Source of the DNA: a virus
Lineage: Duplodnaviria; Caudoviricetes
Virus record (IMG/VR): IMGVR_UViG_3300049008_000030
Location: 1-54,112 of that record
Reading direction: 5' to 3' (one strand)
DNA length: 54,112 bases
Shown here: positions 559 through 50,914 of the stretch, piece by piece
How the letters are laid out: each line of letters starts with the position of its first letter
Position numbering within the stretch: position 1 is the stretch's first letter
Position numbers and translations under genes: made by a program
The notes under the pieces: model-generated
Database searches by the model: none
The model's input: only the letters and a program-made list of their open reading frames with translations
Told to the model about the DNA's origin: nothing

Positions 559-2718
559 ATGGAAAAATCAGAAGAACAAGAACTACAAGATAACTACTTG
601 GAAGAGTCTGAAGAGGGAAGTCAGCATAAGCCAATGGTTGACTGGAAGAATCCACCCAAAGTAGGTGATCTAAATCAAGACTACATTGATGCTAAACAAG
701 ATCATTCCATGCAACAAGCTAGGATATATCGCTGGCTAGATAACCTGAATGTGACTGGATCAGCCAGAGTAAAGAAGTTACCCGGTAGAAGTAGCCATGT
801 ACCTAAGCTAATTCGTAAGCAAGCTGAATGGCGCTATGCCTCTTTAAGCGAGCCATTCTTAAGTACTGAAGACATTTTCACAGTATCGCCGGTTACTTTT
901 GAAGATAAGAAAGGTGCAATACAGAATGAGTTGATCTTAAATAACCAGTTCAATACCAAATTATCTAAAGTAAGATTCATTGATGAGTTCGTTAGGACCG
1001 TAGTAGACGAGGGTACAGTGATTATCCGTACTGGTTGGAAGTACCGTGAGGAAGTCATTCAGATTGACGTACCTGTTTATAGTTATGAGCCTACCCAAGA
1101 TCCACAGGCTCTACAGCTACTACAGAGTGTCCACGAAGCTAGTCAGTCTGATCCACAAGCGTTTGCCAGTGTACCGGAAGAGCTTAAGCAAGCCTTGGTT
1201 ATTACGATAGCACACGGTATTCCCGTTGCTCCTATCCTGACAGGTTATAAGAAGGAAGACCAAACCAAGGTGACGGCTAATCATCCTACGGCTGATATAT
1301 GTAGGTTTAGTGACGTGGTAATAGATCCTACTTGCATGGGTGATCTGCGTAAAGCTGGTTTTGTTATTTATAGCTTCGAGACTTCTATTTCTGAACTAGA
1401 GAAAGATGGGATCTATCATAATTTGGATCGTATTACAGTATCTGATCATTCTCCGTTAATGGAGCCAGACTATATCAGTGATGTTAATACTAACTTTAGA
1501 TTCAAAGATAAACCCAGACAAAAGTTAGTGGTAAAAGAGTACTGGGGTTTCTGGGATATTCACGATACAGGTATCGTTCAACCTATCGTAGCCTCCTATG
1601 TAGGTGACACGATGATTAGGATGGAAGAGAATCCCTACCCAGATAAAGAGTTACCTTTTATCATTGTTCAGTACTTACCCGTTAAGAAATCAGTCTATGG
1701 TGAACCTGATGGTGAGTTATTAGAAGAGAACCAAAAGATTATTGGTGCTGTTACTAGAGGTATGCTTGATGTTATGGGTCGAGGTGCTAATGGACAAACA
1801 GGTATACGTAAGGATGCCTTAGACGTAGTGAATAAGCGTAAGTTTGCTAAGGGGGATGACTACGAATTTAATTCTAATGTTGATCCAAGACAAGCTTTCC
1901 ACATGCACACCTATTCAGAGATTCCACAGTCTGCTGGAACTATTCTACAGATGCAGAATGCTGAAGCAGAGTCACTGACAGGCATTAAAGCATTCTCCAA
2001 TGGCATTAGTGGGGCAGCTCTAGGAAACACCGCTACAGGCATCAGAAGTGCTTTAGATGCTTCATCTAAGCGTGAGCTAGGTATCCTGAGAAGATTGGCT
2101 GAAGGTATTACCCACATGGGTAGAAAGTTCATTAGCATGAATGCAGAGTTCTTATCTGAAGAAGAAGTGGTTAGGGTTTCTAATGCGGAGTTTGTTCCGG
2201 TTAGAAGAGATGATCTTTCTGGTGACTTTGATTTGAAATTATCTATTAGCACTGCTGAAGAAGATAACCATAAAGCAGAAGAACTGTCTTTCTTGTTACA
2301 GACGACTGCACAGTCTAGTGATCCTGAAGAAGTTAGAATGATTCGTGCAGAGATTGCTAGATTAAGAAAGATGCCTGACTTGGCTAAACGTATTGAAGAG
2401 TATCAACCCAAAAAAGATCCATTAGCAGAGAAGGAAGCTGAGTTAAGGATTCAATTATTAGAGGCACAGGTACAGACTGAGAGAGCTAAAACACAAAGTC
2501 ATGGTGCTACTGCTGTATTGGATCAAGCTAGGGCTGCAACTGAGCAAGCTAAAGTAAGGCATTATAATAGTTCTTCTGATCTTAAAGACTTAGAGTTTGT
2601 AGAAACCGATACCGGCACTACACAAGAACGTAAGTTACAACAGTCAGGCGCACAAGCAAGAAGTAATATGGATCTGGAAATGCTTAAGCATCACTTGGGT
2701 CAGAAGACTACTGCATAA
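559..2718 (+). CDS. Portal protein (N4 gp59-like)
   Basis: 719 aa; PKLIRKQAEWRY, EYWG, NPYPD...PF and AESLTG motifs of N4-like portals; synteny. Confidence 0.93.
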   Translation: MEKSEEQELQDNYLEESEEGSQHKPMVDWKNPPKVGDLNQDYIDAKQDHSMQQARIYRWLDNLNVTGSARVKKLPGRSSHVPKLIRKQAEWRYASLSEPFLSTEDIFTVSPVTFEDKKGAIQNELILNNQFNTKLSKVRFIDEFVRTVVDEGTVIIRTGWKYREEVIQIDVPVYSYEPTQDPQALQLLQSVHEASQSDPQAFASVPEELKQALVITIAHGIPVAPILTGYKKEDQTKVTANHPTADICRFSDVVIDPTCMGDLRKAGFVIYSFETSISELEKDGIYHNLDRITVSDHSPLMEPDYISDVNTNFRFKDKPRQKLVVKEYWGFWDIHDTGIVQPIVASYVGDTMIRMEENPYPDKELPFIIVQYLPVKKSVYGEPDGELLEENQKIIGAVTRGMLDVMGRGANGQTGIRKDALDVVNKRKFAKGDDYEFNSNVDPRQAFHMHTYSEIPQSAGTILQMQNAEAESLTGIKAFSNGISGAALGNTATGIRSALDASSKRELGILRRLAEGITHMGRKFISMNAEFLSEEEVVRVSNAEFVPVRRDDLSGDFDLKLSISTAEEDNHKAEELSFLLQTTAQSSDPEEVRMIRAEIARLRKMPDLAKRIEEYQPKKDPLAEKEAELRIQLLEAQVQTERAKTQSHGATAVLDQARAATEQAKVRHYNSSSDLKDLEFVETDTGTTQERKLQQSGAQARSNMDLEMLKHHLGQKTTA

Positions 2719-2851
2719 GTATATGTAAGACTATACTTATATAGTATAGAAGTGTATTATACCGTCTAGGTCAGCTGAGTTTGGCTGTTAGATACTTTTA
2801 ATCATCTCAGTAACTTCCAAGTAAGTTACGAGGACACAAGCGAGGATAGTC

Positions 2852-3184
2852 ATGTCACACATTGAAGAAGTAGAAATTGGTATTGAGCAAGCTAGAGCAA
2901 TGATTTCTAGGGCAACTGCGTTAGCTAATCTGTTTAGCAATAAGGATTTTAAATTGGTTATTACAGAAGGCTACTTAAAAGAAGAAGCCGTTAGACTGGT
3001 ATTGCTAAAAGCTGATCCAAGTACATCTAGTGAAGAAATGCAAGATAGCATTGCTGATGGTATTACTGCTATTGGCCACTTCAATCAGTATTTAAGAACC
3101 ATACAAGCACTAGGAAGTATGGCTGCTAAGTCTCTTGGTGAATACGAAGACTTACGTACTGAACTATTAGACGAGGGTGAGTAA
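2852..3184 (+). CDS. Conserved N4-like protein (gp58 position)
   Basis: 110 aa, GAGGA RBS; N.DFK.VI.EGY...EAVRLV motif; between portal and scaffold-like gene. Confidence 0.7.
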   Translation: MSHIEEVEIGIEQARAMISRATALANLFSNKDFKLVITEGYLKEEAVRLVLLKADPSTSSEEMQDSIADGITAIGHFNQYLRTIQALGSMAAKSLGEYEDLRTELLDEGE

Positions 3185-4272
3185 TGGCTTTAGATACTGA
3201 AGTACAAGCTGATGACTTAGATTATCTATCTATGTCCGATGATGACTTAGGGGAGTATCCAGAAGATACCCTAGCCCAAGAAGCTGATGAAGCTGAGATT
3301 GGTTTTACTGGTGAAGTTGAAGTAGCAGGAGCAAGGCCTGCTACAGACGAAGAGACTGAAGCTGCTGCTGAAGTAGATGGAGATTCTGTAGAAGGTCCTG
3401 AAGAGGAGTCTGAAGAAGAAGGGGATGACGAAGCAGAAGAGTCCTCAGAGTCTACAGAGTTAGACTTTGCAGAAGAGTTTAAGAAACTTACCGCACCATT
3501 TAAAGCTAATGGTAAGAACATGCAGATCAACACTGTTGATGAAGCTAGAACCTTGATGATGATGGGTGCTAACTACAACAAGAAGATGGCCGGTTTAAAA
3601 CCGTCTCTGCGTATCTTAAAGACGCTGGAGAACAACGGTCTTCTTGATGAAGACAAATTAAATTACTTGATTGACCTCGATAAAAAAGATCCTGGTGCAA
3701 TCAATAAACTAATGAAGGACAGTGGTATTAATCCACTGGACTTAGAAGAAGACGGTGCTAGTGCTTATAAGCCCAAAGCTTACAATGCTACCAATAGAGA
3801 AGTGGAACTTGATTCTGTACTCGATGACATTCGAGATACACCTACATTTAAAGACACTATTGATATTGTTGGTAATAAGTGGGACGACAGTAGCAGGAGG
3901 GTTTTAGTAGAAAACCCGTCTATCATTAAAGTGATCAATGATCATGTCTCGGCAGGGATATTTGAGCAAATCACAACTAAGATAGAAAAAGAAAGAATGC
4001 TAGGAAAACTGAATGGTGTATCTGACATTGAAGCCTATAAACAAATAGGTGACTTAATGCAGTCTGCGGGTGAGTTTAATGCTAAGAAAGCAGAGGTAGT
4101 ACTCCCAACTATTCAGGCTACGCCTGTACAGAAGGCTTCAAATATTGATAAGAAACGGGCAGCAGCCTCCACTGTTAAGACGGGTAGATCACCTAAGTCT
4201 AATCAAGAGTTTAATCCCTTGGCTTTGTCTGATGAAGAGTTCGCTAAATTATCTGAGAGTAATTTCTCTTAG
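3184..4272 (+). CDS. N4 gp57-like protein (often annotated tape measure; probable scaffold)
   Basis: Acidic N-terminus, PFKANGK and MGANY.KKM motifs; directly before capsid gene. Confidence 0.8.
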   Translation: MALDTEVQADDLDYLSMSDDDLGEYPEDTLAQEADEAEIGFTGEVEVAGARPATDEETEAAAEVDGDSVEGPEEESEEEGDDEAEESSESTELDFAEEFKKLTAPFKANGKNMQINTVDEARTLMMMGANYNKKMAGLKPSLRILKTLENNGLLDEDKLNYLIDLDKKDPGAINKLMKDSGINPLDLEEDGASAYKPKAYNATNREVELDSVLDDIRDTPTFKDTIDIVGNKWDDSSRRVLVENPSIIKVINDHVSAGIFEQITTKIEKERMLGKLNGVSDIEAYKQIGDLMQSAGEFNAKKAEVVLPTIQATPVQKASNIDKKRAAASTVKTGRSPKSNQEFNPLALSDEEFAKLSESNFS

Positions 4273-11134: not shown

Positions 11135-11220
11135 AGCCTCTGCTTACCCAGTATGTATTTATTAATTCCTTTTTACTTTCAAAACTTGTATTCTGGATGG
11201 CTTTCTATAAGGGGTCATCC

Positions 11221-11739
11221 ATGAATCAACCACTACCGCCAGTCGAACAAGCAAAAGTATTCTTCTTCTTTTTATTAATTACCCTAATGATACCTATTGG
11301 TATAGGTGTTCTGTTAATACTGGTTACATTGTGGGGCTTATATAAGATGCGAAGTACCTATGATTTTAGTTACTTGGATACTGTAAACATTATTCACAAA
11401 GGTCTTGCTGGTGTAGTTGCTGTAGGATTAGTGCTTAGTGCTATGGCTAGTAAAGAGCAAGTAGCTATAGTGCTTACATTAATGATCTACCCTGTGTACT
11501 ATTTTTTACTTACTACTCTATTCTATACTCCACTAAGTAAGCATAAGGAATGGGTAGTAGCTAATGGTATATTCTCTACTACTACAGCAGAGTCTAAGCA
11601 TACAAGGACTACACCATTGATCTCATTCGGTAAGACTGCTTCAATAGCTGATGAGTTGATTAAGTTAAATAACCTAAAAGAAGCCAATATAATTACACTA
11701 GATGAGTTTAATACACTACGCAGTAAGTTGTTGAGTTAA
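11221..11739 (+). CDS. Membrane protein with C-terminal SHOCT domain (moron-like)
   Basis: Several hydrophobic segments; SIADELIKL..L...IIT.DEF...RSKLL SHOCT signature; start 11221 preferred over 11197 (AGGGG upstream). Confidence 0.75.
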   Translation: MNQPLPPVEQAKVFFFFLLITLMIPIGIGVLLILVTLWGLYKMRSTYDFSYLDTVNIIHKGLAGVVAVGLVLSAMASKEQVAIVLTLMIYPVYYFLLTTLFYTPLSKHKEWVVANGIFSTTTAESKHTRTTPLISFGKTASIADELIKLNNLKEANIITLDEFNTLRSKLLS

Positions 11740-11745
11740 ACCCTA

Positions 11746-11812
11746 GACTTCAATAATACCTAGCCTCCCCTAGCTCGTAGAGCGTATGGGGTGGTTAGGT
11801 ATTATTGAAGTC
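11746..11812. repeat. 67-nt long imperfect palindrome/hairpin
   Basis: Perfect 17-bp arms GACTTCAATAATACCTA/TAGGTATTATTGAAGTC; apex GCTC-GTA-GAGC. Confidence 0.9.
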
Positions 11813-24406: not shown

Positions 24407-24520
24407 AAATATTCCTCTTCTAAACGGTACACCCAACAAGAGTCGAACTTGTATCACCTGTCATCACGGACCTGCGTTTTATCCTATTAAACTATGGGTA
24501 TATATTAGGTAATTGGTGAC

Positions 24521-25097: not shown

Positions 25098-25281
25098 AGT
25101 ATTCCCCGTATAAAATTAGTGTTTTGTGTGTGAATAAATTACCCAAACCATGAAGGTTATCGACATAAAATAAATGAGTTCACTCATGACTTATTCCACA
25201 CAGCTGCTCTAAATGGGTTTACTTTCTTACGCTGTTTGTTTGTTGGCTTATTCATAACTACTTTTTTGTTAAGTAAATAAA

Positions 25282-28199: not shown

Positions 28200-29161
28200 C
28201 CTAGTGTTCATGTTACTGCGCTACTGTAACATCGAGCTTTTAACTCAGCTATAGCTTTCACTATAGAGCAGACTATATCATCATAGCTTAACGCTATGCC
28301 TACTACTTCCACCTCGCTTGAGGTGTACTCTACTCGCTTATTCTACCCTATCGTTAGGGTATATGCTTTCGATAGTCGTTGAGGATTACTTAATATTTTT
28401 GTAAGTTTGACCTTTCACAATTTTAGCCATTGCTGTTATAGAGGTTCCAAACATTAGTGCTAACGCTGTAGCACTAAAGTCTTTATCTCGCGGGATAAAC
28501 ACAGAGCGTACATATCTAACTTCCTCTTCAGTAAGTTTAGATTTATCTTTTAAGTTTGCTAAACATTTCTGCTTAGTCTCAGAAGTTTTATACGTTTGCT
28601 TTGTGTTTATACCCGCTTTATTCAAGCCAGTTCTAAAAGCATGTTGGATGTTCTCTTTAGGAGTACACCACTCAAGGTTACTTACATCATTATTTAATTT
28701 ATTACCATCTATATGGTTTACTTGGGTTTTCCCTTCAGGGTTGGGTAAAAAGGCTTTAGCTACAAGCTTATGAAGCATGAGAGTTCTATTTACTACACTC
28801 ACAGCTCTATACCCTCTATTATTTACTGTTGTGGCAAGCTCTTTTTCTGGTTTAAGTATTTCTTTAAACTCACCAGAAAACACCATGCCCTTACCAACCA
28901 AAGGTATTTTTAACTTTGATTGGCTGTAAATTCTACCTTCCGAAGTAACTCTGTATATCCCAGATGCCATGTCTTCAATATGCTCTTTCATTTTAATTCT
29001 CAATTTAAAAATGGTAGCCTTATTTTAACACAGAATTAAATTAACTACTAAGTCTTTCCTGCTGATTACCCAATCCTACGGCTTGTTCATCACCTTTCGG
29101 TTATACGTAGGCTCTAAGGGCTTTCCAGCATTTCAATAGGTTTAAAGAGAACTAACAGTTA
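28200..29161 (-). ncRNA. Group I intron (IA2-like), 962 nt
   Basis: P AAAUGCUGGAAAG, Q AAUCAGCAGG, R UCAACGACUA, S GAUAUAGUC; P1 GAGAAU/GUUCUC with U-G; terminal G at 28200. Confidence 0.9.
28386..29003 (-). CDS. Intron-encoded HNH homing endonuclease
   Basis: HKLVA.AF.PNP....QVNHIDGNKLNN.VSNLEW.T..EN..HA; C-terminal HTH-like segment. Confidence 0.92.
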   Translation of the reverse strand: MRIKMKEHIEDMASGIYRVTSEGRIYSQSKLKIPLVGKGMVFSGEFKEILKPEKELATTVNNRGYRAVSVVNRTLMLHKLVAKAFLPNPEGKTQVNHIDGNKLNNDVSNLEWCTPKENIQHAFRTGLNKAGINTKQTYKTSETKQKCLANLKDKSKLTEEEVRYVRSVFIPRDKDFSATALALMFGTSITAMAKIVKGQTYKNIK

Positions 29162-33575: not shown

Positions 33576-33797
33576 TTATGTCGGTATCGTTTTAAGCTTG
33601 TTTACCGCCTCTGGGTTGTTATTGTAGTCCGACCCCATCCAGATATTCGCGTAAGATAGGTATACCCATACTCGTTTAGATGTCCCATCGGAGAATGGTA
33701 TGTCTTCTTGCTTGTAGAATTGCTGTGGTGTTTCCCCATCACACATAACGCTATAATGTGTGGCCCCATATTTTTGGTTAATTTCCTTAGGTGTCAT
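33576..33797 (-). CDS. Hypothetical protein
   Basis: 73 aa, GGGGA RBS; GATHY motif. Confidence 0.6.
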   Translation of the reverse strand: MTPKEINQKYGATHYSVMCDGETPQQFYKQEDIPFSDGTSKRVWVYLSYANIWMGSDYNNNPEAVNKLKTIPT

Positions 33798-34688: not shown

Positions 34689-34970
34689 CTATTGTCCCCG
34701 TATAAAATTAATGAGTGGTCTAGGAAATACTTTAGTAATCTTTATATTAGCTGCATGTAGAGCTATTTTTAGCCCTTCTATCTCATGCTCTAATTCGTGT
34801 AAATGTTTTAGTAGCGCTTGGTTCCTTTCGTCTTTAGCGTGATTGTTAAGCGTTAATATATTCTTTGACCTGGTGGTATAATCAAGTTCATGCTCTACCA
34901 GTTTCAGTGCTTTAGCCAATTCATTGCATCGTATCTTATGGCGATAGATGAATGCGGTTATCCTATTCAT
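34689..34970 (-). CDS. Hypothetical coiled-coil protein
   Basis: 93 aa, GAGGAG RBS, overlaps polymerase stop. Confidence 0.55.
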   Translation of the reverse strand: MNRITAFIYRHKIRCNELAKALKLVEHELDYTTRSKNILTLNNHAKDERNQALLKHLHELEHEIEGLKIALHAANIKITKVFPRPLINFIRGQ

Positions 34971-36096
34971 TTATTAACTCCTCTAAATATTTTTTATGGG
35001 CTGCTCTACCGATTGCAGTTATTTCTGCTTGGGTAGAGCGGTTAGGTAGTTTTGCTGATACTTCCCATGAGGGGTAGAAGATCTCTGCGGTAGCACTGAT
35101 CTTTACGATGTCATGTCGTATCTCTGGTAAGCCTGTCCAAGACATGCACTCAATAAGATTATTGTTGAACCATTCAATACATTCAGCGTTGTCTGCTACT
35201 GAGAAGTACTGACTGTCATGGATCGCACAGATAGGTAGAATGTCTAGCGCATAGGGAGAACCCCATATACGCCTTTGAAATGCTACTGCTGCTCTGCTAT
35301 TAAGCATCCCATAACTTTGTCCTAAAGCATTACCTGCTGTCCTAGATTCAGCTTTAGCTTCATAGGGTACTGAGCTACTGGTTAAGATTGATTGAGCCAA
35401 GATAGGTGTTCGTAGTCTTAGTCCGAAGGCTAGTTTTACGTAGCCGTTCTTAGTAGCTTCGATTAATTTGGTTTGTACCCACTCATCGGATACCTTATAA
35501 AGCTCGTGGTAGTTTCTTTCTATTTCTAGTGCTTCTAGTTTTTTGAAACCAACATTAGCAATTAAGCCATGATAGGTCCCCCCGTAGGTTAATAAAAAAG
35601 TTGGTGCTTTTGATGCTTGTCTTAGCTTAGGAAATAAATCTGCTATTGAGTTTATGCTTTCAACGGTATCTATGATTCCAGCTAGTTGATCCCTAAAGTA
35701 AGCAAACGCTCTTAGGCTGTGACCATCATAGCCATCGGTATACACCTTTAGTTTGTTAGGGTCTTTCGTAGTAAGAGCAGATATCTTATCTTCCAAGGAA
35801 TCAAAATCTGCTCCTATCATTACTCTACCTTTGGGGGACTTGAAGCATGACTTTATTAACTTGCCATAGGTAGATCCACTAGGTAAGTTAGTTAAATTGG
35901 GATTAGAGCTAGATTGCCTACCCGATTTCGTTCCTGTTATATTGAAGTTACCATGAAGATAGTAATTACCATCTTCCTTTAGTACGCTATTCTCTTTGAG
36001 GGCTTTAATGAATGTACCGAGTATCTTAGCTGCCTCTGCATATTTAATGAGTGCTTTAAGTACTCTAGCTGCTTGTATGGCTTCATCTCTGGTCAT
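34963..36096 (-). CDS. DNA polymerase family A, C-terminal catalytic part
   Basis: GT.SGR.SSSNPNL.N.P, motif A GADFDSLE, motif B RQASKAPTFLLTYGG, motif C IHDSQY; own GAGGA RBS. Confidence 0.93.
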   Translation of the reverse strand: MTRDEAIQAARVLKALIKYAEAAKILGTFIKALKENSVLKEDGNYYLHGNFNITGTKSGRQSSSNPNLTNLPSGSTYGKLIKSCFKSPKGRVMIGADFDSLEDKISALTTKDPNKLKVYTDGYDGHSLRAFAYFRDQLAGIIDTVESINSIADLFPKLRQASKAPTFLLTYGGTYHGLIANVGFKKLEALEIERNYHELYKVSDEWVQTKLIEATKNGYVKLAFGLRLRTPILAQSILTSSSVPYEAKAESRTAGNALGQSYGMLNSRAAVAFQRRIWGSPYALDILPICAIHDSQYFSVADNAECIEWFNNNLIECMSWTGLPEIRHDIVKISATAEIFYPSWEVSAKLPNRSTQAEITAIGRAAHKKYLEELINE

Positions 36097-36129
36097 GTGT
36101 ATAGTTCCTCATAATTATTCTCCTCATCT

Positions 36130-36320
36130 GTTAGGTTGCACATTGAAAACATCTGGTTACTGTCCCATTAGACGCACCGCGCGATACGTTTAAAGTCGAT
36201 TTTCTATTCCGCTTTTGAGTGCTGCAAGACTCTCAAAACATTAGCTTTTTGGCAGTGCTTGCAACTCCCCAAAAAGCACGGTCAATTTCCTTCGCAAATG
36301 TTTTCAATGTGCAACCTAAC
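36130..36320. repeat. 191-bp element bounded by perfect 23-bp inverted repeats (MITE-like or structured RNA)
   Basis: GTTAGGTTGCACATTGAAAACAT at 36130-36152 and its exact reverse complement at 36298-36320; three internal hairpins. Confidence 0.9.
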
Positions 36321-36326
36321 TCATCA

Positions 36327-37880
36327 TTAAACTAGATTCTCTTCAGAAATATTAAATTCCGACATTAGATACACTAGATGCTTTTTTAGTGTTTTACCTC
36401 CGGTAGCTGGCGCACCTGAGTCAGTTGAATCAATGACAGGTAGTTTCCATTGGTCATGCAAGAGTCCTTGCAAGTTTGGATTACTGTTTGGGTTAAATAC
36501 TATATCGGCAAAGTCTTCTAGTGGCTTTACCTTTACTTTTAAGAGTAGATTTTTCTTAATCATCTCCTCCTTTTGTAATTGTAGGGAATAGTCTTGGATT
36601 ACTTTACTCTGCGATAGTACAGCTAGATGCTCTGCTTGGATCTGGGTTAGTTGTTGTTCTGCTTTCAGAACTTGAGCCATGTCGATAGGCATACCACAAA
36701 GTTCTTCCTGCATAATCACTTTAACGCCGGGTAGCATTAGTTGGTTGTATATTCTGTCCTGTTGATCGTTGATCATTACGGGTAGGTTCTTATTGAATAC
36801 GAACCATGTTGCAAGACAATCCAGTAGGTTATATCTCAAGAGTTTATCTTTAGGTATTCTACGAATATCCTTAATCTCTTCTTGAGCATAGTTACCTGTG
36901 AACTCTTGGCTATTCTCTTTTAAGCCTAGCACGTTACCTGCACAACTATTGGTAGCCAGATAGGTAATGATCTGGGTGCAATGCACATCTTTAGTCATTA
37001 CTCTTATGCCTTCAATCATGCCTGCTGTATCCAGCATGCTCTCCATGAATAACTCATAGGTAAGTATCTTGGCATCATAAGTAATTTTGTGATAGATGAG
37101 AGTACCTTCATAGCTTAGAAAGAACTTTTTCAGTAAATCTTTTACTTTTTGGTTATCTTGTTGATGACCGTACCAACCATCTACAGGTGGGTGCTTATTC
37201 TCTGTGTAGTCAACACCGAAGGCAATTCCTTCATGCTGATTCCAAGCAAAGGCTATAGAGCCTATACCTGCCTTATTAAAATCCAAGCTGAAAGCTTCGA
37301 TGTCACAAGTGAGGGCAGGGTATTGGTGCAGACTATCTAACGCTAAACGTATATCGTCCAATGTATCAGGGTAATTTTCATACTTGATAATGTTAGATCC
37401 TGGTTCAGAGTAAGTTCCTGTCCTCTCTGATCCAAGTACATCAATAGCGGTAGTGATGCTACTGAGCTTGGTTGGATCGTAATAGAGTGCTTGGTAGTTC
37501 AGGGTGATGGTTGCAGACATACCTTCAAAGCCTTTGTAGGTACATTCTGTTAAGTAACCAAACATCGGTGCTGCTTTCTTTGAGCCAGTCAGTACCTTGA
37601 AGTACTCAGCATCAGCTACCAGTAAATATTTTACACCTAGCTGTTGTGTAGCCTTAGCTAATGAGTCTAGGTAAGCTTTCGCTTGTTTAACTGTTACCTT
37701 GGCTTTACCACCGTAATCTAAAGAGAAGGCAATAATATCTGTTTCTAAATAGCCTTTGTCTATTAGTGGTTCTACATAATATTGCCATAGTTTTTCTTTG
37801 TTTAGTGCTGATGCCTTAATTAGTACAGCTATTTTATAGCTATACTGTTGAGGTGGTTGATGAAACACTAGATGGAACAT
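36327..37880 (-). CDS. DNA polymerase family A, N-terminal part (3'-5' exonuclease plus start of thumb)
   Basis: ExoI CDIEAFS, ExoII YHKITYD, ExoIII YNLLD; FNPNS...L..LL and T.SG.P.TG thumb motifs. Confidence 0.92.
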   Translation of the reverse strand: MFHLVFHQPPQQYSYKIAVLIKASALNKEKLWQYYVEPLIDKGYLETDIIAFSLDYGGKAKVTVKQAKAYLDSLAKATQQLGVKYLLVADAEYFKVLTGSKKAAPMFGYLTECTYKGFEGMSATITLNYQALYYDPTKLSSITTAIDVLGSERTGTYSEPGSNIIKYENYPDTLDDIRLALDSLHQYPALTCDIEAFSLDFNKAGIGSIAFAWNQHEGIAFGVDYTENKHPPVDGWYGHQQDNQKVKDLLKKFFLSYEGTLIYHKITYDAKILTYELFMESMLDTAGMIEGIRVMTKDVHCTQIITYLATNSCAGNVLGLKENSQEFTGNYAQEEIKDIRRIPKDKLLRYNLLDCLATWFVFNKNLPVMINDQQDRIYNQLMLPGVKVIMQEELCGMPIDMAQVLKAEQQLTQIQAEHLAVLSQSKVIQDYSLQLQKEEMIKKNLLLKVKVKPLEDFADIVFNPNSNPNLQGLLHDQWKLPVIDSTDSGAPATGGKTLKKHLVYLMSEFNISEENLV

Positions 37881-39212: not shown

Positions 39213-39848
39213 TTAAGAACATTTACTATCACCACAGTTTAAGCAGGTATTACAACCATCTAAGATGACTACAGCTTTCGTACTGCAAGACTTGCATACC
39301 TGAGCATGGTCAGGGAACATATTAGGTTCAATGACTGTACCCTTAACTTTCTTACTGTTAATAGGCACAATGCTAGAAGCACCACTTTGTAGCGTATTTA
39401 AGAATATGCCAATAACGCAGCCTATCTCTTCTACGATTGATTTATAGTATTTACCTTTACCAGTTTCATGGCTTTTACCCCAGTAACCTTCAGTGTCGTA
39501 AACGGCTTTAAATTCTTCAACAATAAAGCTAACATCGTTACCTTTTCTAAACACTGCTGAGAGCGTTAACGCCATAGCATCCATCCACATTTTATGTTCT
39601 GGATTTTTGGTATTGAAGAATATTTCTCTAGGATAGAGTATGCCATCAATACATTGCGCATTTAGCGTGATGTATAAGGCATGTTTACTGTTTGCTGGTT
39701 TTAACTTAAAAGTTCTACCTATCAATATTGCTTCTCTTTCTATGAACTCGTTCATAGCAATGCTTTGTACAACTGGTTCGTTTGCTGCCGCTGTTCCCAG
39801 CTTAACACTGACGATCTTTGAGCTTATTTTTACGTTAGAATTTTCCAT
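39213..39848 (-). CDS. nrdJb: Class II ribonucleotide reductase C-terminal subunit (NrdJb-like)
   Basis: HALYIT.N, P.EIF.N.KN, SAVFRKG.DV.F.VEE.KAV.D, C..C...DGC.TCLNCG.SKC; start MENSN overlaps nrdJa stop. Confidence 0.85.
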
Positions 39849-41877
39849 AATATCCTTCTTTAATACTGTCGAATAGATTAGCAGCTGAATGAGTATCTCC
39901 GTCATAGTCGATAGTGGTATCACCCGCTACTGTTACTTCTTCGCCTGATTCTAGTACGAAAGTGTACTGAGTACTCTTTAGGTCTTCTTCTTTAACTAAG
40001 ACTCCTTGGAATACTTCAGGGTTGAAGCGGAAGGTCGTACAACCTTTAAGTCCCTTAGCAATAGCGTAATCATAAATGTCTTTGAAATCCTCGTAAGGCA
40101 TATCAGTTGGGACATTAATGGTTTTACTGATTGAGCTATCAATCCAGTATTGAGCAGCAGATTGAATATCAATATGGTGCTTTGGGTCGATCTCATCAGC
40201 ACCTTTAAAGTAATCAGGTAATGAACCAGGATTACTAGGATGAGCCGAAGGATCAAATAGATGTCTGTATAGTAGTAGCTCATAAGAAACTACTTCAAGG
40301 ACCTGTTTAGTACTCTTGCCTGCCTTAATCACATTCCTCATGTATGAGTGTGCAAAGCTAGGCTCAATACCATTACTGGCATTGTTACCTACGGATAAAG
40401 CCAATGTGCCTGTAGGAGCAATAGAGCTGTGATGCGTAAAGCGACAACCATGCTTAATAAACTCTTGCTTTAATTCTGGAGCCTCTTTCAGTATTCTTTG
40501 AATATGTACGCTTCTGGTAAACAGCACTGCACAAGGTATTGTAGTACCATCCGCATCCTTAAATTCTTCAGAGAATATAGGTGCTGCACCTTTTTCTTTG
40601 GCTAACTCTATTCCTGTTCTCCAGCCTTCAATCGCCAAAGTCTTGGTGATCTTATCTGTGAGGGCTACTGACTCAGGACTACCGTATACCATACCTAGCA
40701 TGGTCATAGCGGAGCCTAGACCCAGATAACCCATACCATGTCTACGTTTGCGTAGAATCTCATTGCGCTGTGCTTCCAGTGGTAGGTTATTCATATCTAC
40801 TACGTTATCGAGCATACGGGTAAATATGCTTACGACAGCACTAAACAGTTGAAAGTCAAAGGTAGCAGCATCAGTGAAAGGTTCACTAACAAATTTGGTT
40901 AAGTTGATAGATCCTAGTAGACAAGCACCGTTTGGGGGTAATGGCTGTTCACCGCATGGGTTGGTAGCACGGATGTCTTCACAGAAGTACAATGGATTTT
41001 CTTTATTGATTTTATCTATCAATAGAAATCCTGGCTCTGAGAAGGTGTAGGTAGACTGCATGATAATATCCCACAGTTCTACTGCCGGCATTGAGCCATA
41101 GATCTTACAGGCTACTTCACCCGCTTTATTTTTAAGGTAGTTAGTTAGATCACCAGGGAACTTTCTATAGACATACTCTTCTCTAGCATCGAAAGTTTTT
41201 CTTGTTACTGGGAAAGAGAATACCCATTCGGTATTGTTCTTTACTGCTTCAAGGAATTTATCGGTAATTAATAGAGAGATATTAAATTGTCGTAGCTTAC
41301 TGTCTTCTCGCTTGGCTTTAATGACATTTAATACATCTGGATGCTCCAGATCAAAGGTAGCCATCTGTGCGCCTCTACGTCCTCCTGCTGAGGCAATGGT
41401 AAAGCACATCTTATCGAATACATCCATAAATGGTATGGCTCCGGTAGTGGTAGCACCAACACCAGAAACCATTGCTCCGTTAGGTCTAATGGTACTAAAT
41501 TCGTAACCAATACCACAACCAGCTGAGAGAGTAATACCTGCATCACGTACACTTCCAAAGATGCCTTCAATAGAATCTTCTATGGTATCTGATACGGTAC
41601 AGTTAATTGAGGATGCACCGGGTTTATGTTCTTCAGCACCTAGATTAGATAAGGATCTACCTGCTGGAATAGCACCTACTCTTAATGCCCAAAGGAATTG
41701 GTTTTCCCAGTAGGCCTGACCGTTTTCAGTGCTGGCTAAGGCTTTAGCTACACGTTTGTAAGTATCATCTACAGTTAGATCAATCTTAACTCCTTCTTTA
41801 GTTTTTAGTTGATACTTGGTTTCCCAAGTGTCCAGCGAACCTAGTTGTAAGGGTAGTACTGTTTTTTGTTTACTCAT
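39835..41877 (-). CDS. nrdJa: Adenosylcobalamin-dependent ribonucleotide reductase (NrdJa-like)
   Basis: PAGR..SN.G, INCTVS, RRGAQM, TNPCGEQPL, IAPTGT, SISKT.N, GLKGCTTFR. Confidence 0.93.
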   Translation of the reverse strand: MSKQKTVLPLQLGSLDTWETKYQLKTKEGVKIDLTVDDTYKRVAKALASTENGQAYWENQFLWALRVGAIPAGRSLSNLGAEEHKPGASSINCTVSDTIEDSIEGIFGSVRDAGITLSAGCGIGYEFSTIRPNGAMVSGVGATTTGAIPFMDVFDKMCFTIASAGGRRGAQMATFDLEHPDVLNVIKAKREDSKLRQFNISLLITDKFLEAVKNNTEWVFSFPVTRKTFDAREEYVYRKFPGDLTNYLKNKAGEVACKIYGSMPAVELWDIIMQSTYTFSEPGFLLIDKINKENPLYFCEDIRATNPCGEQPLPPNGACLLGSINLTKFVSEPFTDAATFDFQLFSAVVSIFTRMLDNVVDMNNLPLEAQRNEILRKRRHGMGYLGLGSAMTMLGMVYGSPESVALTDKITKTLAIEGWRTGIELAKEKGAAPIFSEEFKDADGTTIPCAVLFTRSVHIQRILKEAPELKQEFIKHGCRFTHHSSIAPTGTLALSVGNNASNGIEPSFAHSYMRNVIKAGKSTKQVLEVVSYELLLYRHLFDPSAHPSNPGSLPDYFKGADEIDPKHHIDIQSAAQYWIDSSISKTINVPTDMPYEDFKDIYDYAIAKGLKGCTTFRFNPEVFQGVLVKEEDLKSTQYTFVLESGEEVTVAGDTTIDYDGDTHSAANLFDSIKEGYYGKF

Positions 41878-42786: not shown

Positions 42787-42941
42787 TATTTATCCTTATT
42801 CAGTCTTTCATAAATCCAGCGACAATCTTCATGTGAAATACTGAAGCCGTGTTTTTTACATACCTCTATTACTTCTTCAATAAAAGAATCTATTGCAGGT
42901 ACTTCTATATGTTTTTGTTTTTTTCCACTCCAGCGTTTCAT
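42786..42941 (-). CDS. 51-aa hypothetical protein
   Basis: Manual translation MKRWSGKKQKHIEVPAIDSFIEEVIEVCKKHGFSISHED...; ATGA overlap with integrase stop. Confidence 0.55.
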   Translation of the reverse strand: MKRWSGKKQKHIEVPAIDSFIEEVIEVCKKHGFSISHEDCRWIYERLNKDK

Positions 42942-43954
42942 ATATCTATATCCCTTGGGTTTAAGTTTGTGTAACGCTTAAGCGTATTCCAGTTCTCATG
43001 CAATGAGATTTGTTGTACTTCAACTATGCTGAGTTTCTTTTCAAATAGTATTGATACTGCGTGATGCCTTAAGTCATGGAAATGCAAACCAGTAATTCCT
43101 AGCATTTTACAGGATTGAGTAAAGTAAGCTCCCACTGTTTTACTGTTATAGGGGAAGATAAACTCACTTACTCTAGGTTGCCTTAATAGTATTTTGTAAG
43201 CTGTCCTTGGTAGTTTAGACATCTTGGATTTATTCTTAATGCGTGGATCTTTTAAGTTACGAACCAGTATGGTTCTATCTTCATTGTGTAGGTCCTCCCA
43301 GCGTAGTTGTACTATTTCTGATTGTCTTCTAGCAGAATAGATAGCGAACCACATTAAGTGGAGCATAGGGATATTTTGGTACTTATCATGTAAGTATCTG
43401 GATAGTTCCCATATCTCCTTTTTAGTAGGTCTTCGGGATCTGTGTTGTGCTTTAGCAATTAAGCCTTCTGAGTAGAGAATCTCTCTAGCAGTAGCGAATA
43501 TGGTTAAATCGGTATCAAGGTCTATGACACCTTTCATGGTTCGTAGTACTACGCCTAACCAAATGAGATCATTGGTAGCGGTTTGTGGTAAGCACTCTTT
43601 GTTCCTCTCACGAATATGTTGAATTAAGTCTTTATGAGTTAAGGTATGTACATTTAGTTTAGTTATGTCTCTTTTTAAGAGCTTGTTAATATCAAACCTT
43701 TTGCTTCTGCCCGATGGGCTAAAGTCTTTTAAGTATTGTTCTATGACACTACCCAGTGAAAGGTATTCACGTTTTTTATAGACTGTCTGTTCTTGTAGTT
43801 CAGTCTCTCTTCGCATACCCCAGTCTTTTGCTAGTTTTTGCTTATTGAAACTCTTCTTTTCACGATACACAACTGTACCATGTTTGCGTATCTTGATAGA
43901 ACAGTCGTAAACTATCTCACCGTTTGCCTTTATTCTTTTTACTATTGATGCCAT
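42938..43954 (-). CDS. int: Tyrosine integrase, dusA-associated type
   Basis: Catalytic set R (SARRQSEI), K (LKDPR), HxxR (HDLRH), H (SLHENW), Y (LKRYTN); start MASIVKR with GAGGA RBS (track start 43975). Confidence 0.93.
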   Translation of the reverse strand: MASIVKRIKANGEIVYDCSIKIRKHGTVVYREKKSFNKQKLAKDWGMRRETELQEQTVYKKREYLSLGSVIEQYLKDFSPSGRSKRFDINKLLKRDITKLNVHTLTHKDLIQHIRERNKECLPQTATNDLIWLGVVLRTMKGVIDLDTDLTIFATAREILYSEGLIAKAQHRSRRPTKKEIWELSRYLHDKYQNIPMLHLMWFAIYSARRQSEIVQLRWEDLHNEDRTILVRNLKDPRIKNKSKMSKLPRTAYKILLRQPRVSEFIFPYNSKTVGAYFTQSCKMLGITGLHFHDLRHHAVSILFEKKLSIVEVQQISLHENWNTLKRYTNLNPRDIDI

Positions 43955-43967
43955 GTTACTTTCCTCT

Positions 43968-44146
43968 GTCCCCATAAAATATCATGGGGACTCTGTGGGG
44001 ACAAATATAGTATTATTAACCAATAATAACTCCTTGGGAAGCCCCATGAACCATAATAAACCTGCACACCGCTTTAGTGTTGCACCGATGCTGGATTGGA
44101 CTGACAGTCGCTATTCTACTGGGCTGTAGCGTTTCATGGGGACTCT
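43968..44146. mobile_element. Putative attP with arm-type repeats
   Basis: TCATGGGGACTCT at 43982-43994 and 44134-44146; further TGGGGAC-like copies at 43968-43975 (inverted), 43996-44002 and 44041-44048 (inverted); contains dusA fragment. Confidence 0.82.
44046..44129 (+). pseudogene. dusA: Replacement 5' fragment of host tRNA-dihydrouridine synthase A
   Basis: Translates MNHNKPAHRFSVAPMLDWTD then diverges (SRYSTGL*); RFSVAPMLDWTD is the DusA N-terminal signature. Confidence 0.9.
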
Positions 44147-44372
44147 ATGCGCCCACACGCATTTTATCGAGGTAATTTGCTAGGTCGATGACATCAACTA
44201 GCCAAGGTGCTTTGTTACTTTTTACTGCTTTAAATGTTCTAAAGGGAATCAAACCTTTGTTGGCTTGATCCCTTGTGAAGTCCTCTGACCATCCGAAGTA
44301 TTTTGTTGTTACTTTCTTTAGTTCTATAAATCTTGCACTAAATTCAATCTTCAGGTCTTCTGCTGTTGTCAT
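44145..44372 (-). CDS. PrtN/pyocin-activator family protein, probable excisionase
   Basis: I.L..V...YFG, G.IPF..F....S.KAPWLV...DLA.YLD; abuts attP. Confidence 0.8.
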   Translation of the reverse strand: MTTAEDLKIEFSARFIELKKVTTKYFGWSEDFTRDQANKGLIPFRTFKAVKSNKAPWLVDVIDLANYLDKMRVGA

Positions 44373-45593: not shown

Positions 45594-46709
45594 CTAAAGC
45601 TTTGTGGTATCTAGGTGTACTAACTTACCAAAATTTACAGATGCTATAGGGTTGTCTATACAGCACCAGATGACTGGGTACTTAGGTTCTTCTACTATTC
45701 TTCTACAGAGTAGATCTGAGAATACAAGAAGCACCGTAGGTGACTTATCTTTTAAGTAGTCAAAGACTGGCTGTAGGTTAGTTCCTCCTCCACCCATAAA
45801 TAGTACATCTTCTATTTTTTCATCTTGGTTTAGGATGGTTACTTTTTTTACTTCGGTATCAAAAGGAATGATGGTGGTTCTGATAGGATTAACGGTTTCA
45901 CGTATCCCTAGCATTTCTGTAATGAAGATTGGGAAAGACTGTACCATTGAGTAGCTAATGTCTGCTGCTATCACTAGATGATCCATTTGTTCAGAGTAGA
46001 GTCTTGGTAAATAGAAGTCAGGCATATATCTCTTGTTTGGTTTCCTAAAGGAATAATCATTAGCAGCAAAGGCAGAGAAGAAATCTTGTAAGATGACATT
46101 CCAAGGTAATAATGGATTGACTATCTTTTCAATAGCCATTAATACATCACCCGGTACAGTCCCCGGAGCATCCCCCATTAATCTTGATTGGGTCGTAGCT
46201 TTAATCAATATCTCTGTGATCTGTTCTTGGATCGCCTTTACTTCTTCAGGGTCACTGGGAACGCTGATGTCTACGTCATAGCTTTCATTGTTCTGTTCTT
46301 CTTGCTTAGAATAGATGGCAGCATAGACTTGCTCTGTTGTCATTTTATTGTACAGTGGATCACTTAACCCACCTTCAGGAAGCTCGTAAGAGCTATCTAG
46401 CAGCATGTTATTAATAACGTAGTCTGCTGCTTTATTCCAAGTAGGGAAGTGTCTATCGCCTGCTCTGGTAATATGATCAAAGGCTACATGCCAAGCTTCG
46501 TGAGCTAGTAAACCTAATTGTTGCTTAGGTGTTAATCCAAGGAACCATGTAGGATTAATCCTAAGCTCTATTCCATTAGTACAGGCTGTTGGTATTGCAT
46601 AATCTTCTATGTGTTTAAGTGAGAAGACTATGGTGGATAAGAACACGCTATTCTTGTGCATGATCAAAGCTATCTTAGCTTTGTCCAACGCATCTGAAAA
46701 TTGACTCAT
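45594..46709 (-). CDS. Metallopeptidase-vWA domain protein (N4 gp25-like)
   Basis: TACTNG, HEAWH zinc motif, WN.AADYVIN, MIDAS DISYS, GGGT. Confidence 0.9.
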   Translation of the reverse strand: MSQFSDALDKAKIALIMHKNSVFLSTIVFSLKHIEDYAIPTACTNGIELRINPTWFLGLTPKQQLGLLAHEAWHVAFDHITRAGDRHFPTWNKAADYVINNMLLDSSYELPEGGLSDPLYNKMTTEQVYAAIYSKQEEQNNESYDVDISVPSDPEEVKAIQEQITEILIKATTQSRLMGDAPGTVPGDVLMAIEKIVNPLLPWNVILQDFFSAFAANDYSFRKPNKRYMPDFYLPRLYSEQMDHLVIAADISYSMVQSFPIFITEMLGIRETVNPIRTTIIPFDTEVKKVTILNQDEKIEDVLFMGGGGTNLQPVFDYLKDKSPTVLLVFSDLLCRRIVEEPKYPVIWCCIDNPIASVNFGKLVHLDTTKL

Positions 46710-49851: not shown

Positions 49852-50914
49852 CAAATGTTAAATCAAGACGTTACTCTTGACCCTTAAATATATTATAAAT
49901 AGCAGCATTTCCTACATTAAACTTAGCTGAGATCTCTACACCGTTAAGACCTTCAGCATGAAGCTGAAGTATCTCTTCTACATCGGTATGAGATAACCTT
50001 ATGTTAGGATGTTTACCGTAATTGTCTCTGTTGGTTGCGAAACCTACGTTAACTTTTGCAGAAACAAACTGACACGTTGTTGGGCTGTATATGTGAGGAT
50101 GTATATTAAGTTGTTCAGATAGAATATCTTTATCTATATGTAGTCCCTTAACCCATCCATTAGCTAGACCCCACTCAATAAATGCTTGAGGGTTATCACG
50201 CCATTCTTCACATACAGTCACACCCATCCCCATATACCATTGATACCCTTGACCATTTTCGTTGTAACACCTATCCATCATGCCTCTGTAGGCTTTATAT
50301 AATGGGTGAGTATTACTTGCTTTGCGGTAGCCGTGCTTTGTTTTTCTAGCAAGTTCTACACAACCACATGAAGGTGTCTCAGGATCTAGGGATTGGTACT
50401 TCTTAGTTTGATGTTTGATCGTATTGGCTCTAGCAGTATGTGGTTTTCCACAGTCGCACTGATATACCCAAAACGCATTTCCTATAGCATCTTTATGTAT
50501 GAACTCTTTGGCTACTAATGACCCAAACCGCTCGTTGGTTATATCTACTATAGGTCTTTTTGCTCTGGTTTTTGCTATTTTCATTGGTTTTCCTTATTAA
50601 TCAATACAATGTAATTATACACTGAGTTGATGTGTTAGGAAAGCTACTATTTATATTTAAGTCTCTGATTTTCATCAGAGTATCGGACTATATCTTCACC
50701 CTCTTTTCAGTAGGGGCAAGGCACTTCGGATCTCACTTGAGTATCCTACGAACATTATTGACCAGCAATACTGGCTTCTCGTTCTAGTCTCTGAACCTTC
50801 AAGAATATTACTACTCTTGCTTGGCTGCTGATTAGCATAGGAGTTACCCCTAAGCCTTCCAGCAATTCACCTTGTTTTCTTCTCACCCTCTCGGATGCGT
50901 GACGCAGTTACGCT
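49852..50914 (-). ncRNA. Group I intron (IA2-like), 1063 nt
   Basis: P AAUUGCUGGAA, Q AAUCAGCAG, R GUUCAGAGACUA, S AAGAUAUAGUC; P1 ACGU/GCGU with U-G; terminal G at 49852. Confidence 0.9.
49871..50584 (-). CDS. Intron-encoded Cys-rich HNH-like homing endonuclease
   Basis: FG.L, W...CDCG, SCGC, M..RCYN, G.TVC.EW, IDKD, YSP.TC.FV...N; C-terminal HTH. Confidence 0.85.
   Translation of the reverse strand: MKIAKTRAKRPIVDITNERFGSLVAKEFIHKDAIGNAFWVYQCDCGKPHTARANTIKHQTKKYQSLDPETPSCGCVELARKTKHGYRKASNTHPLYKAYRGMMDRCYNENGQGYQWYMGMGVTVCEEWRDNPQAFIEWGLANGWVKGLHIDKDILSEQLNIHPHIYSPTTCQFVSAKVNVGFATNRDNYGKHPNIRLSHTDVEEILQLHAEGLNGVEISAKFNVGNAAIYNIFKGQE

Follow-up and report, generated by a model that had tools for sequence, protein, structure and literature searches.

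An orphan inverted-repeat element resembling a MITE at the junction of a split DNA polymerase gene in an N4-like phage

Invertible promoters, such as fimS and the Bacteroides invertons, consist of inverted repeats of ~20-30 bp that frame 100-300 bp upstream of a gene. In phages, hairpins are found between replication or early cistrons, where they are processed or bound by the polymerase, as is the case for the intercistronic RNase III sites of T7 and for the T4 gp43 operator. The Correia and ERIC elements, for their part, are families that number from tens to hundreds of copies in a host genome and have a recognisable consensus, Correia elements coming with a TA duplication.

MITEs are described in a review of 2024 as elements of less than 500 bp, bounded by inverted repeats of 4-30 bp, with direct repeats in young copies and stable stem-loop transcripts (PMC10969869). 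The same source reports that RNase III cuts Correia-containing mRNAs at the inverted repeats (PMC10969869); this cleavage and the ERIC insertions that alter mRNA decay are the described consequences of co-transcribed MITEs (PMC10969869, PMC2649163). In viruses, a catalogue drawn from NCBI viral and IMG/VR sequences (vMITEs), for which elements were retained by MITE-Tracker at its default settings or by 95% identity to a cellular MITE, gives MITEs as rare (0.01% of viral sequences) and suggests transfer in lysogeny as their likely route (PMC11602168). Independently of any such element, family A polymerases split between their exo and pol parts have been described in T7-like phages (PMC10201439), and we found HNH genes inside N4-like polymerase genes in annotated records. 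Among the matches listed, our literature search returned no description of the split site of the N4-like polymerase; it also found no mention of MITEs in Schitoviridae.

Here, we analyse a 191-bp inverted-repeat element of an uncultured phage, whose DNA polymerase gene is split in two at the place where the element lies. The observation itself is real, and the element looks like an orphan MITE-like insertion in an insertion hotspot; the bolder readings that make it an RNA are unsupported.

The element and its genomic setting

The window, i.e., the whole stretch of 54,112 nucleotides that we analysed, is an IMG/VR virus record estimated to be 73% complete. Judging from its gene content, it is a fragment of an N4-like (Schitoviridae) podovirus: it carries genes for a 3773-aa virion RNA polymerase, the two RNAPII subunits of N4 type, a portal, a major head protein, an SSB and a primase. 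The element and the genes around it are laid out as follows, the minus strand being the mRNA strand.

36327-37880, minus strand: N-terminal half of the DNA polymerase, 517 aa, with a UDG-like region, the 3'-5' exonuclease and the start of the pol domain
36321-36326, minus strand: left abutting hexamer TGATGA, candidate target-site duplication
36130-36320, minus (mRNA) strand: whole inverted-repeat element, 191 bp, non-coding, bounded by a perfect 23-bp inverted repeat
36298-36320, minus strand: 5' arm of the inverted repeat in the mRNA-strand view, 23 nt
36153-36297, minus strand: interior of the element, 145 nt, non-coding, with three short hairpins
36277-36244, 36238-36213 and 36189-36172, minus strand: the interior hairpins, as read from the sequence
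36130-36152, minus strand: 3' arm of the inverted repeat, 23 nt, perfectly complementary to the 5' arm
36124-36129, minus strand: right abutting hexamer AGATGA, as read from the sequence
36097-36129, minus strand: spacer from the element to the start of the C-terminal half, 33 nt, with GAGGAG and GAGGA
34963-36096, minus strand: C-terminal half of the DNA polymerase, 377 aa, with palm and fingers (PF00476 positions 72-357)

A first-pass annotation of this DNA, made from the letters alone, had described a perfect 23-bp closing stem, and this stem is indeed there. The arm sequence GTTAGGTTGCACATTGAAAACAT is found at 36130-36152 on the plus strand and at 36298-36320 on the minus strand with 0 mismatches, and it is unique in the window: when up to 3 mismatches are allowed, the 54-kb sequence contains two matches, which are the arms themselves, and 0 of 100 shuffles contained any. 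Among the 29 inverted pairs of the window this one ranks first (26 nt at 96%), the next perfect pair being 13 nt long, and one G-U pair on the minus strand lengthens the stem of the element to 26 pairs. Six-frame translation shows stops in all six frames and no frame open across the 191 bp, and the ORF list holds no ORF of at least 40 aa that fills them, which bears out the earlier remark that no credible ORF is present. The near-duplicated flanks that had also been pointed out, TGATGA and AGATGA, are present and identical at 5 of 6 positions; by our own binomial estimate the probability of such a likeness by chance is ~0.005, yet ATGA-type strings are expected at stop/start junctions. A longer duplication between the left and right flanks is not significant (score 9; 538 of 5000 shuffles and 7% of genomic control pairs score at least as high). 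The GC content of the element is 0.41-0.415, compared with ~0.39 for the phage and 0.36-0.42 for the flanks, and the element is not AT-rich relative to its surroundings, which would have been a MITE trait. The element is known from one assembled contig.

Two other repeats of the window were observed in passing. A 25-nt inverted repeat (11746-11812, 92% complementary, with a 17-nt loop) lies in the interval that separates the ORF at 11197-11739 from the virion RNA polymerase gene, which begins at 11918. A direct repeat of 32 nt with the core TCCCCGTATAAAATTA, its copies being 78% identical, occupies 25103-25134 and 34695-34726; the latter copy is directly upstream of the thyX start (minus strand), and could be a phage promoter or leader motif.

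The two ORFs that flank the element had been read as polymerase halves, and they align end to end and in a single frame on the phage N4 gp39 locus (N-terminal half at 742-2226, C-terminal half at 2227-3312, contiguous). This is consistent with their domain matches, i.e., PF01612, which is weak (E 7e-4), and phrog_17 DNA polymerase (4.9e-59) for the N-terminal half, and PF00476 for the C-terminal half. Since the PF00476 match begins at position 72, the split lies inside the pol domain. In cultured relatives at ~55% identity (N4, pVco-5, BUCT194), the polymerase gene is unsplit. As a separate observation, the ribonucleotide reductase of the window is seemingly in two pieces as well (39213-41877, minus strand): an ORF of 680 aa corresponds to phrog_84 positions 202-784 and one of 236 aa, with a TSCPD domain, to positions 810-973, and the two overlap by 89 nt in different frames, which may mean that the gene is split, that it is frameshifted or that the sequence contains an error.

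The N-terminal half of the polymerase ends in ...EENLV, with a TAA stop at 36329-36327. The spacer on the other side of the element contains GAGGAG (36125-36120), after which comes a mini-ORF of 9 codons in another frame (36112-36083), and GAGGA (36110-36106), located 9 nt 5' of the ATG of the C-terminal half, for which it is likely the ribosome-binding site. On the minus strand, the stop of the N-terminal half is thus 6 nt before the stem, while GAGGA is 20-24 nt and the ATG 34 nt after it.

The phage also carries a lysogeny-type module on the same strand:

42938-43975, minus strand: tyrosine recombinase/integrase (PF00589, 3.2e-20; phrog_1)
43982 and 44134: 16-nt direct repeats, in the gap between the integrase and the Xis-like ORF
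44145-44372, minus strand: Xis/PrtN-like ORF, 75 aa, upstream of the integrase, a by-eye reading

The identity of the recombinase to temperate-phage integrases does not exceed 55%, and the 16-nt repeats at 43982 and 44134 probably mark attP. The recombinase was found in none of the four related N4-like records that we searched, of which three have a completeness of 90% or more. Among bacteria it has one relative, a partial one in Ca. Methylobacter favarea (79% over residues 6-117). Lysogeny genes have been reported for 54 N4-like genomes (PMC10654107). The integrase/Xis module of this phage may hold wider interest than the element itself. The window also contains free-standing HNH endonuclease genes in its replication and early regions (28386-29003 and 49871-50584); both match PHROG entries, and only the one at 28386-29003 matches Pfam HNH_3. 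An ORF at 45594-46709 has the PHROG label HNH, and Pfam identifies it as a DUF2201 metallopeptidase/VWA.

The polymerase junction in relatives and the search for other copies

IMG/VR contains only one close relative of this phage (L004; 89-91% aa and 80-86% nt identity). Its polymerase is split in the same way, into ORFs of 517 and 379 aa that overlap by ATGA, and the element is absent. The difference between the two phages can be delimited as a broader insertion:

36097-36338, minus strand: insertion in the broad sense, 242 nt compared with 8 nt in L004, from the junction sequence, the alignment and the blastn blocks

Indeed, after the shared ...TCTGAAGAG, L004 has 8 nt (GACTTAAC) before the ATG, while the window has 242 nt, made up of 18 nt in which a new stop codon lies, the element (191 nt) and the spacer (33 nt). 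This difference designates the element as an insertion or a replacement in the lineage of the window. The presence/absence polymorphism that is a MITE trait is therefore observed through L004, with extra differences in the flanks: the empty site of L004 is not what would be left by removing the element and one duplication, as the 18 nt on the left and the 33 nt on the right differ too. We considered the spacer as a relic of the ancestral end of the N-terminal half and rejected it (score 8 against L004; 850 of 5000 shuffles and 600 of 5000 random 33-mers of the window score at least as high).

We then compared this junction more widely by a profile search, which gave 60 IMG/VR loci, 54 of them with both polymerase halves. 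The gene is unsplit in 39 of these 54 loci, which as a rule lack 16 codons there by comparison, and it is interrupted at the same place in the other 15; these counts are of contigs and not of events, several split loci being near-duplicates. Among the 15, one (L063) has an ambiguous frame change without insert, one (L018, on the same contig as L004) has an insert of -1 nt, and one (L076) has an insert of 8 nt, again with an ATGA overlap. Six loci have larger inserts, of 381-412 nt, four have inserts of 770-771 nt, and there is one locus with 1490 nt and one with 2082 nt. All 12 inserts of at least 381 nt hold same-strand ORFs of at least 53 aa, recurrent families included, and none resembles the element, which was seen neither in L004 nor in any of the 14 other split loci. 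Because all the other inserts of at least 381 nt hold small ORFs, we consider the polymerase junction an insertion hotspot.

The cassettes found at this junction recur in the uncultured N4-like phages L023-L035, L044, L046, L060 and L067, and their families include those with the signatures MS.FKLSDLGEK... (124-136 aa), MKHIY(F/L).ARKEEE... (73-85 aa) and ...NHIYMYARL.... Within 3 kb of the element, the window differs from L004 by two further small insertions, both at gene boundaries:

34689-34970, minus strand: 93-aa ORF, just downstream of the C-terminal half of the polymerase, absent from L004, without Pfam or PHROG match
33576-33797, minus strand: 73-aa ORF, just downstream of thyX, absent from L004, without Pfam or PHROG match

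Other copies of the element were sought in several collections. Used as a query against its own 54-kb record, the element DNA matches itself alone. In IMG/VR, the exact 23-mer of the arm, a two-arm pattern of 12+12 nt and each of two interior 20-mers gave 0 matches, and so did the two-arm pattern and a 20-mer of the arm in GTDB species genomes, where the C-terminal half of the polymerase has no relative either. By blastn, the PLSDB plasmids gave none and the INPHARED phages gave only noise at E = 10 among the 20 of 36 matches listed; five related phage records gave one match of 20 nt at 90% (E 0.04) and no copy of the element. The element is also absent from the genome of Ca. Methylobacter favarea, and among 401 genomes of its order, 8 have matches of 20-37 nt with per-genome E values of 0.002-0.008, which is the chance level. 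In the JGI metagenomes, the 20-mer of the arm has 1 match, for ~1 expected by chance at that collection size according to our own estimate. It is located in a metagenome contig of 1386 bp (L013), itself an IS3-family element with orfA, orfB and an A-run between them. We rejected this IS3 lead and treated the match as chance: it shares 20 nt only (25 nt at 96% on one side), and lies inside the coding region of orfB and not at an IS end. More generally, a match between the arm and IS ends had been put forward as a way of tracing the element, and no IS with such ends came out of the collections searched. As the scans of the collections required exact words, diverged copies could escape them, and with neither a second copy nor a parent IS found, membership among MITEs is unproven.

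Origin and possible roles of the element

The explanation that we favour, tentatively and with a confidence that falls a little short of even, is that the element is a recent, single-copy, non-coding MITE-like insertion into a polymerase gene whose split is older than the insertion, at the stop/start junction of its halves. A MITE was one of several options raised by the first-pass annotation, and a good part of what it implies is observed: the element is short (191 bp, for a limit of 500 bp) and ORF-less, its inverted repeats are perfect, exactly terminal and, with 23 bp, within the ~4-30 bp of MITEs, the abutting hexamers, a candidate target-site duplication, agree at 5 of 6 positions, and the close relative lacks it; the want of a second copy stands against this option. 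The element would have arrived by transposition, possibly while the integrase- and Xis-bearing phage sat in the host chromosome. The tyrosine integrase, the Xis-like ORF and the attP-like repeats make a prophage stage possible, in which the phage would be exposed to host transposons.

An ATGA stop/start overlap implies translational coupling of adjacent genes, and a helix of 23-26 bp is a typical RNase III substrate. A scan of the element found no sigma-70-like promoter and no intrinsic terminator on either strand (phage-specific promoters being outside its scope). An intrinsic terminator formed by the closing stem was rejected as well: the stem is followed by AGAUGAGGAG, which has no U-tract, and the scan finds no terminator there. 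As no terminator or promoter was found, we infer that the junction block is transcribed as one message. After a MITE-like insertion, the element would thus be co-transcribed with the replication genes, and its arms would pair into a perfect helix of 23-26 bp, bringing the stop of the N-terminal half close to the ribosome-binding site and start codon of the C-terminal half. The ATGA coupling would be replaced by independent initiation of the C-terminal half at GAGGA-N9-AUG. With its 23-26 bp, the stem predicted on the minus strand reaches the roughly two helical turns expected of an RNase III substrate, and the host enzyme might cut it, as happens to Correia elements inside Neisseria mRNAs. Most likely, the element would be a passenger that the phage tolerates and not a regulator under selection; the lack of significant structure in its interior, the absence of an Rfam hit and the lack of promoter and terminator fit a passenger and not a dedicated RNA.

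On the other hand, the element could be a selected RNA device, its helix serving for RNase III processing or for insulation, so as to separate the messages of the two halves and set their ratio, or its inner loops binding a protein such as the polymerase itself. T4 gp43, which binds its own mRNA and thereby autoregulates, is a precedent for the latter. We regard this as unlikely overall. The position of the element, exactly between two cistrons that are kept translationally coupled in relatives, speaks for such a device, and the perfection of the arms could reflect selection for pairing. The folding energies point the same way as far as the strand is concerned: a 211-nt stretch with the arms folds at -78.6 kcal/mol on the minus, i.e., mRNA, strand (z -7.8, a stability that none of 200 shuffles equals), compared with -64.5 kcal/mol on the plus strand (z -6.5), and G-U pairs favour the minus strand, one extending the stem to 26 pairs and two in the third hairpin. 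Without the arms, the 145-nt interior reaches -40.1 kcal/mol on the minus strand, with a z-score of -1.5 (17 of 200 shuffles as good), and a z-score of -0.4 on the plus strand (64 of 200 shuffles as good). The interior thus shows no significant structure compared with shuffled sequence, which counts against a selected RNA, as does the absence of the element from L004 and from the 14 other split loci.

The three interior hairpins drawn by the first-pass annotation exist as strings, exactly as described, but taken together their stability is no better than that of shuffles. Moreover, in the minimum-energy fold the two "related loops" form pairs between them, both of them holding a palindromic UUGCA core, so that the drawing of twin hairpins is one of several alternatives. 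The twin-loop motif occurs in the window at chance level only. As a gapped pattern, it has 1 viral and 6 genomic matches in the collections, none with stems or extended similarity, for a chance expectation of ~8 genomic matches (our own estimate). A covariance scan of 35500-37000 against Rfam 15 gave best E values of at least 2 and nothing at the gathering score; the sole hit that touches the element, snoU2-30 (36083-36133, E 3.8), overlaps its last 4 bases only. With an interior comparable to shuffles, a motif that does not recur and no Rfam match, the idea of a non-coding RNA or decoy with twin protein-binding loops is not supported. Other RNA and DNA structures were considered and set aside. 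Known RNA families are limited to the Rfam noise at E values of at least 2, and ARAGORN finds solely a tRNA-His at 24426-24501. An integron attC site is defined by RYYYAAC ... GTTRRRY in that order and measures ~57-141 bp; the ends of the element, GTTAGGT...ACCTAAC, are core-like heptamers in the opposite order, and its 191 bp do not fit either. An RNase III-excised RNA that would control the downstream subunit, another option of the first-pass annotation, is mechanistically plausible because a perfect helix of 23-26 bp would lie inside a polycistronic message.

A third explanation, to which we also give a low probability, does without a transposon: the 242 nt would be the scar of an illegitimate recombination or of a cassette deletion, and the inverted repeat would derive from fold-back or template switching. 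Different small-ORF cassettes do occupy this junction in different relatives, the differences from L004 extend past the inverted repeat on both sides, and no family of copies was found in the collections searched, all of which speak for a scar. A decayed gene cassette was rejected as a candidate: when the element was compared by tblastx and blastn with every fetched locus and with the remainder of the window, no coding remnant and no similarity to the cassettes were detected, which argues against a scar. Fold-back duplication usually copies adjacent local sequence; it does not usually leave unique DNA framed by a perfect terminal repeat of 23 bp, and the arms match nothing local.

Much less probable is an inverton, in which the 23-bp repeats would serve as recombination sites and the flipping of the 145-bp interior would switch the catalytic half, possibly in link with lysogeny. 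The geometry is like that of known invertible promoters, and the phage has its own tyrosine recombinase 6.6 kb away, absent from all four related records searched. This recombinase, however, resembles temperate-phage integrases and sits beside an Xis-like ORF and its own attP-like repeats, and nothing else in the window is like the arms at up to 3 mismatches. Nor is the invertible switch that had been proposed earlier supported by the scan, in which neither orientation carries a sigma-70-like promoter or an intrinsic terminator. More broadly, we hold it very improbable that this is a rare temperate N4-like phage in which the element is a switch on the catalytic half, be it an inverton or an RNase III-gated insulator, that uncouples the polymerase halves; if it were, replication would be held down in lysogeny and released on induction. 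Finally, an assembly artefact is hardly credible, even with the element in a single contig and one independent relative without it, as short-read or MDA chimeras would typically invert and duplicate local sequence rather than frame 145 unique nt with a 23-bp repeat, and the ORFs on both sides have kept their integrity, including a correct stop codon and a ribosome-binding site.

Comparison with known elements and split genes

On present evidence, the element defines no new RNA class or mechanism. If the MITE-like reading is true, an essential gene that is split has tolerated a miniature inverted-repeat element at the place where its stop and start overlapped, the locus shows the conversion of a coupled gene pair to independent initiation, and the junction stands out as an insertion hotspot of general reach among uncultured N4-like phages.

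The intercistronic hairpins of T7 and T4 are kept among relatives and are much shorter, whereas the element is absent from its closest relative. The inverted repeats of fimS and of the Bacteroides invertons are of similar length, but the element has neither an internal promoter nor an adjacent dedicated invertase. The split, or "genes-in-pieces", replication genes of phages resemble this locus, where two neighbouring cistrons likewise make up a single polymerase and mobile DNA occupies the break. They differ in that the occupant is non-coding at this locus, and not a homing endonuclease or a small ORF, and in that the break falls inside the pol domain.

Among the mobile elements themselves, the vMITEs are likewise miniature elements bounded by inverted repeats in phage genomes; in contrast to the catalogued ones, this element has no cellular counterpart in the collections searched. 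The element also resembles the Correia (CREE/nemis, Neisseria) and ERIC (enterobacteria) elements, which are likewise short and non-coding, have long terminal inverted repeats, lie between or beside genes and form long hairpins in transcripts. They are multi-copy families with a consensus, whereas the element is an orphan phage copy without detected relatives, likened to them by description. By this analogy, it would behave like a co-transcribed MITE of the Correia/ERIC type, without assignment to any family, and could serve as a test case for the RNase III processing of long co-transcribed hairpins in phage messages.
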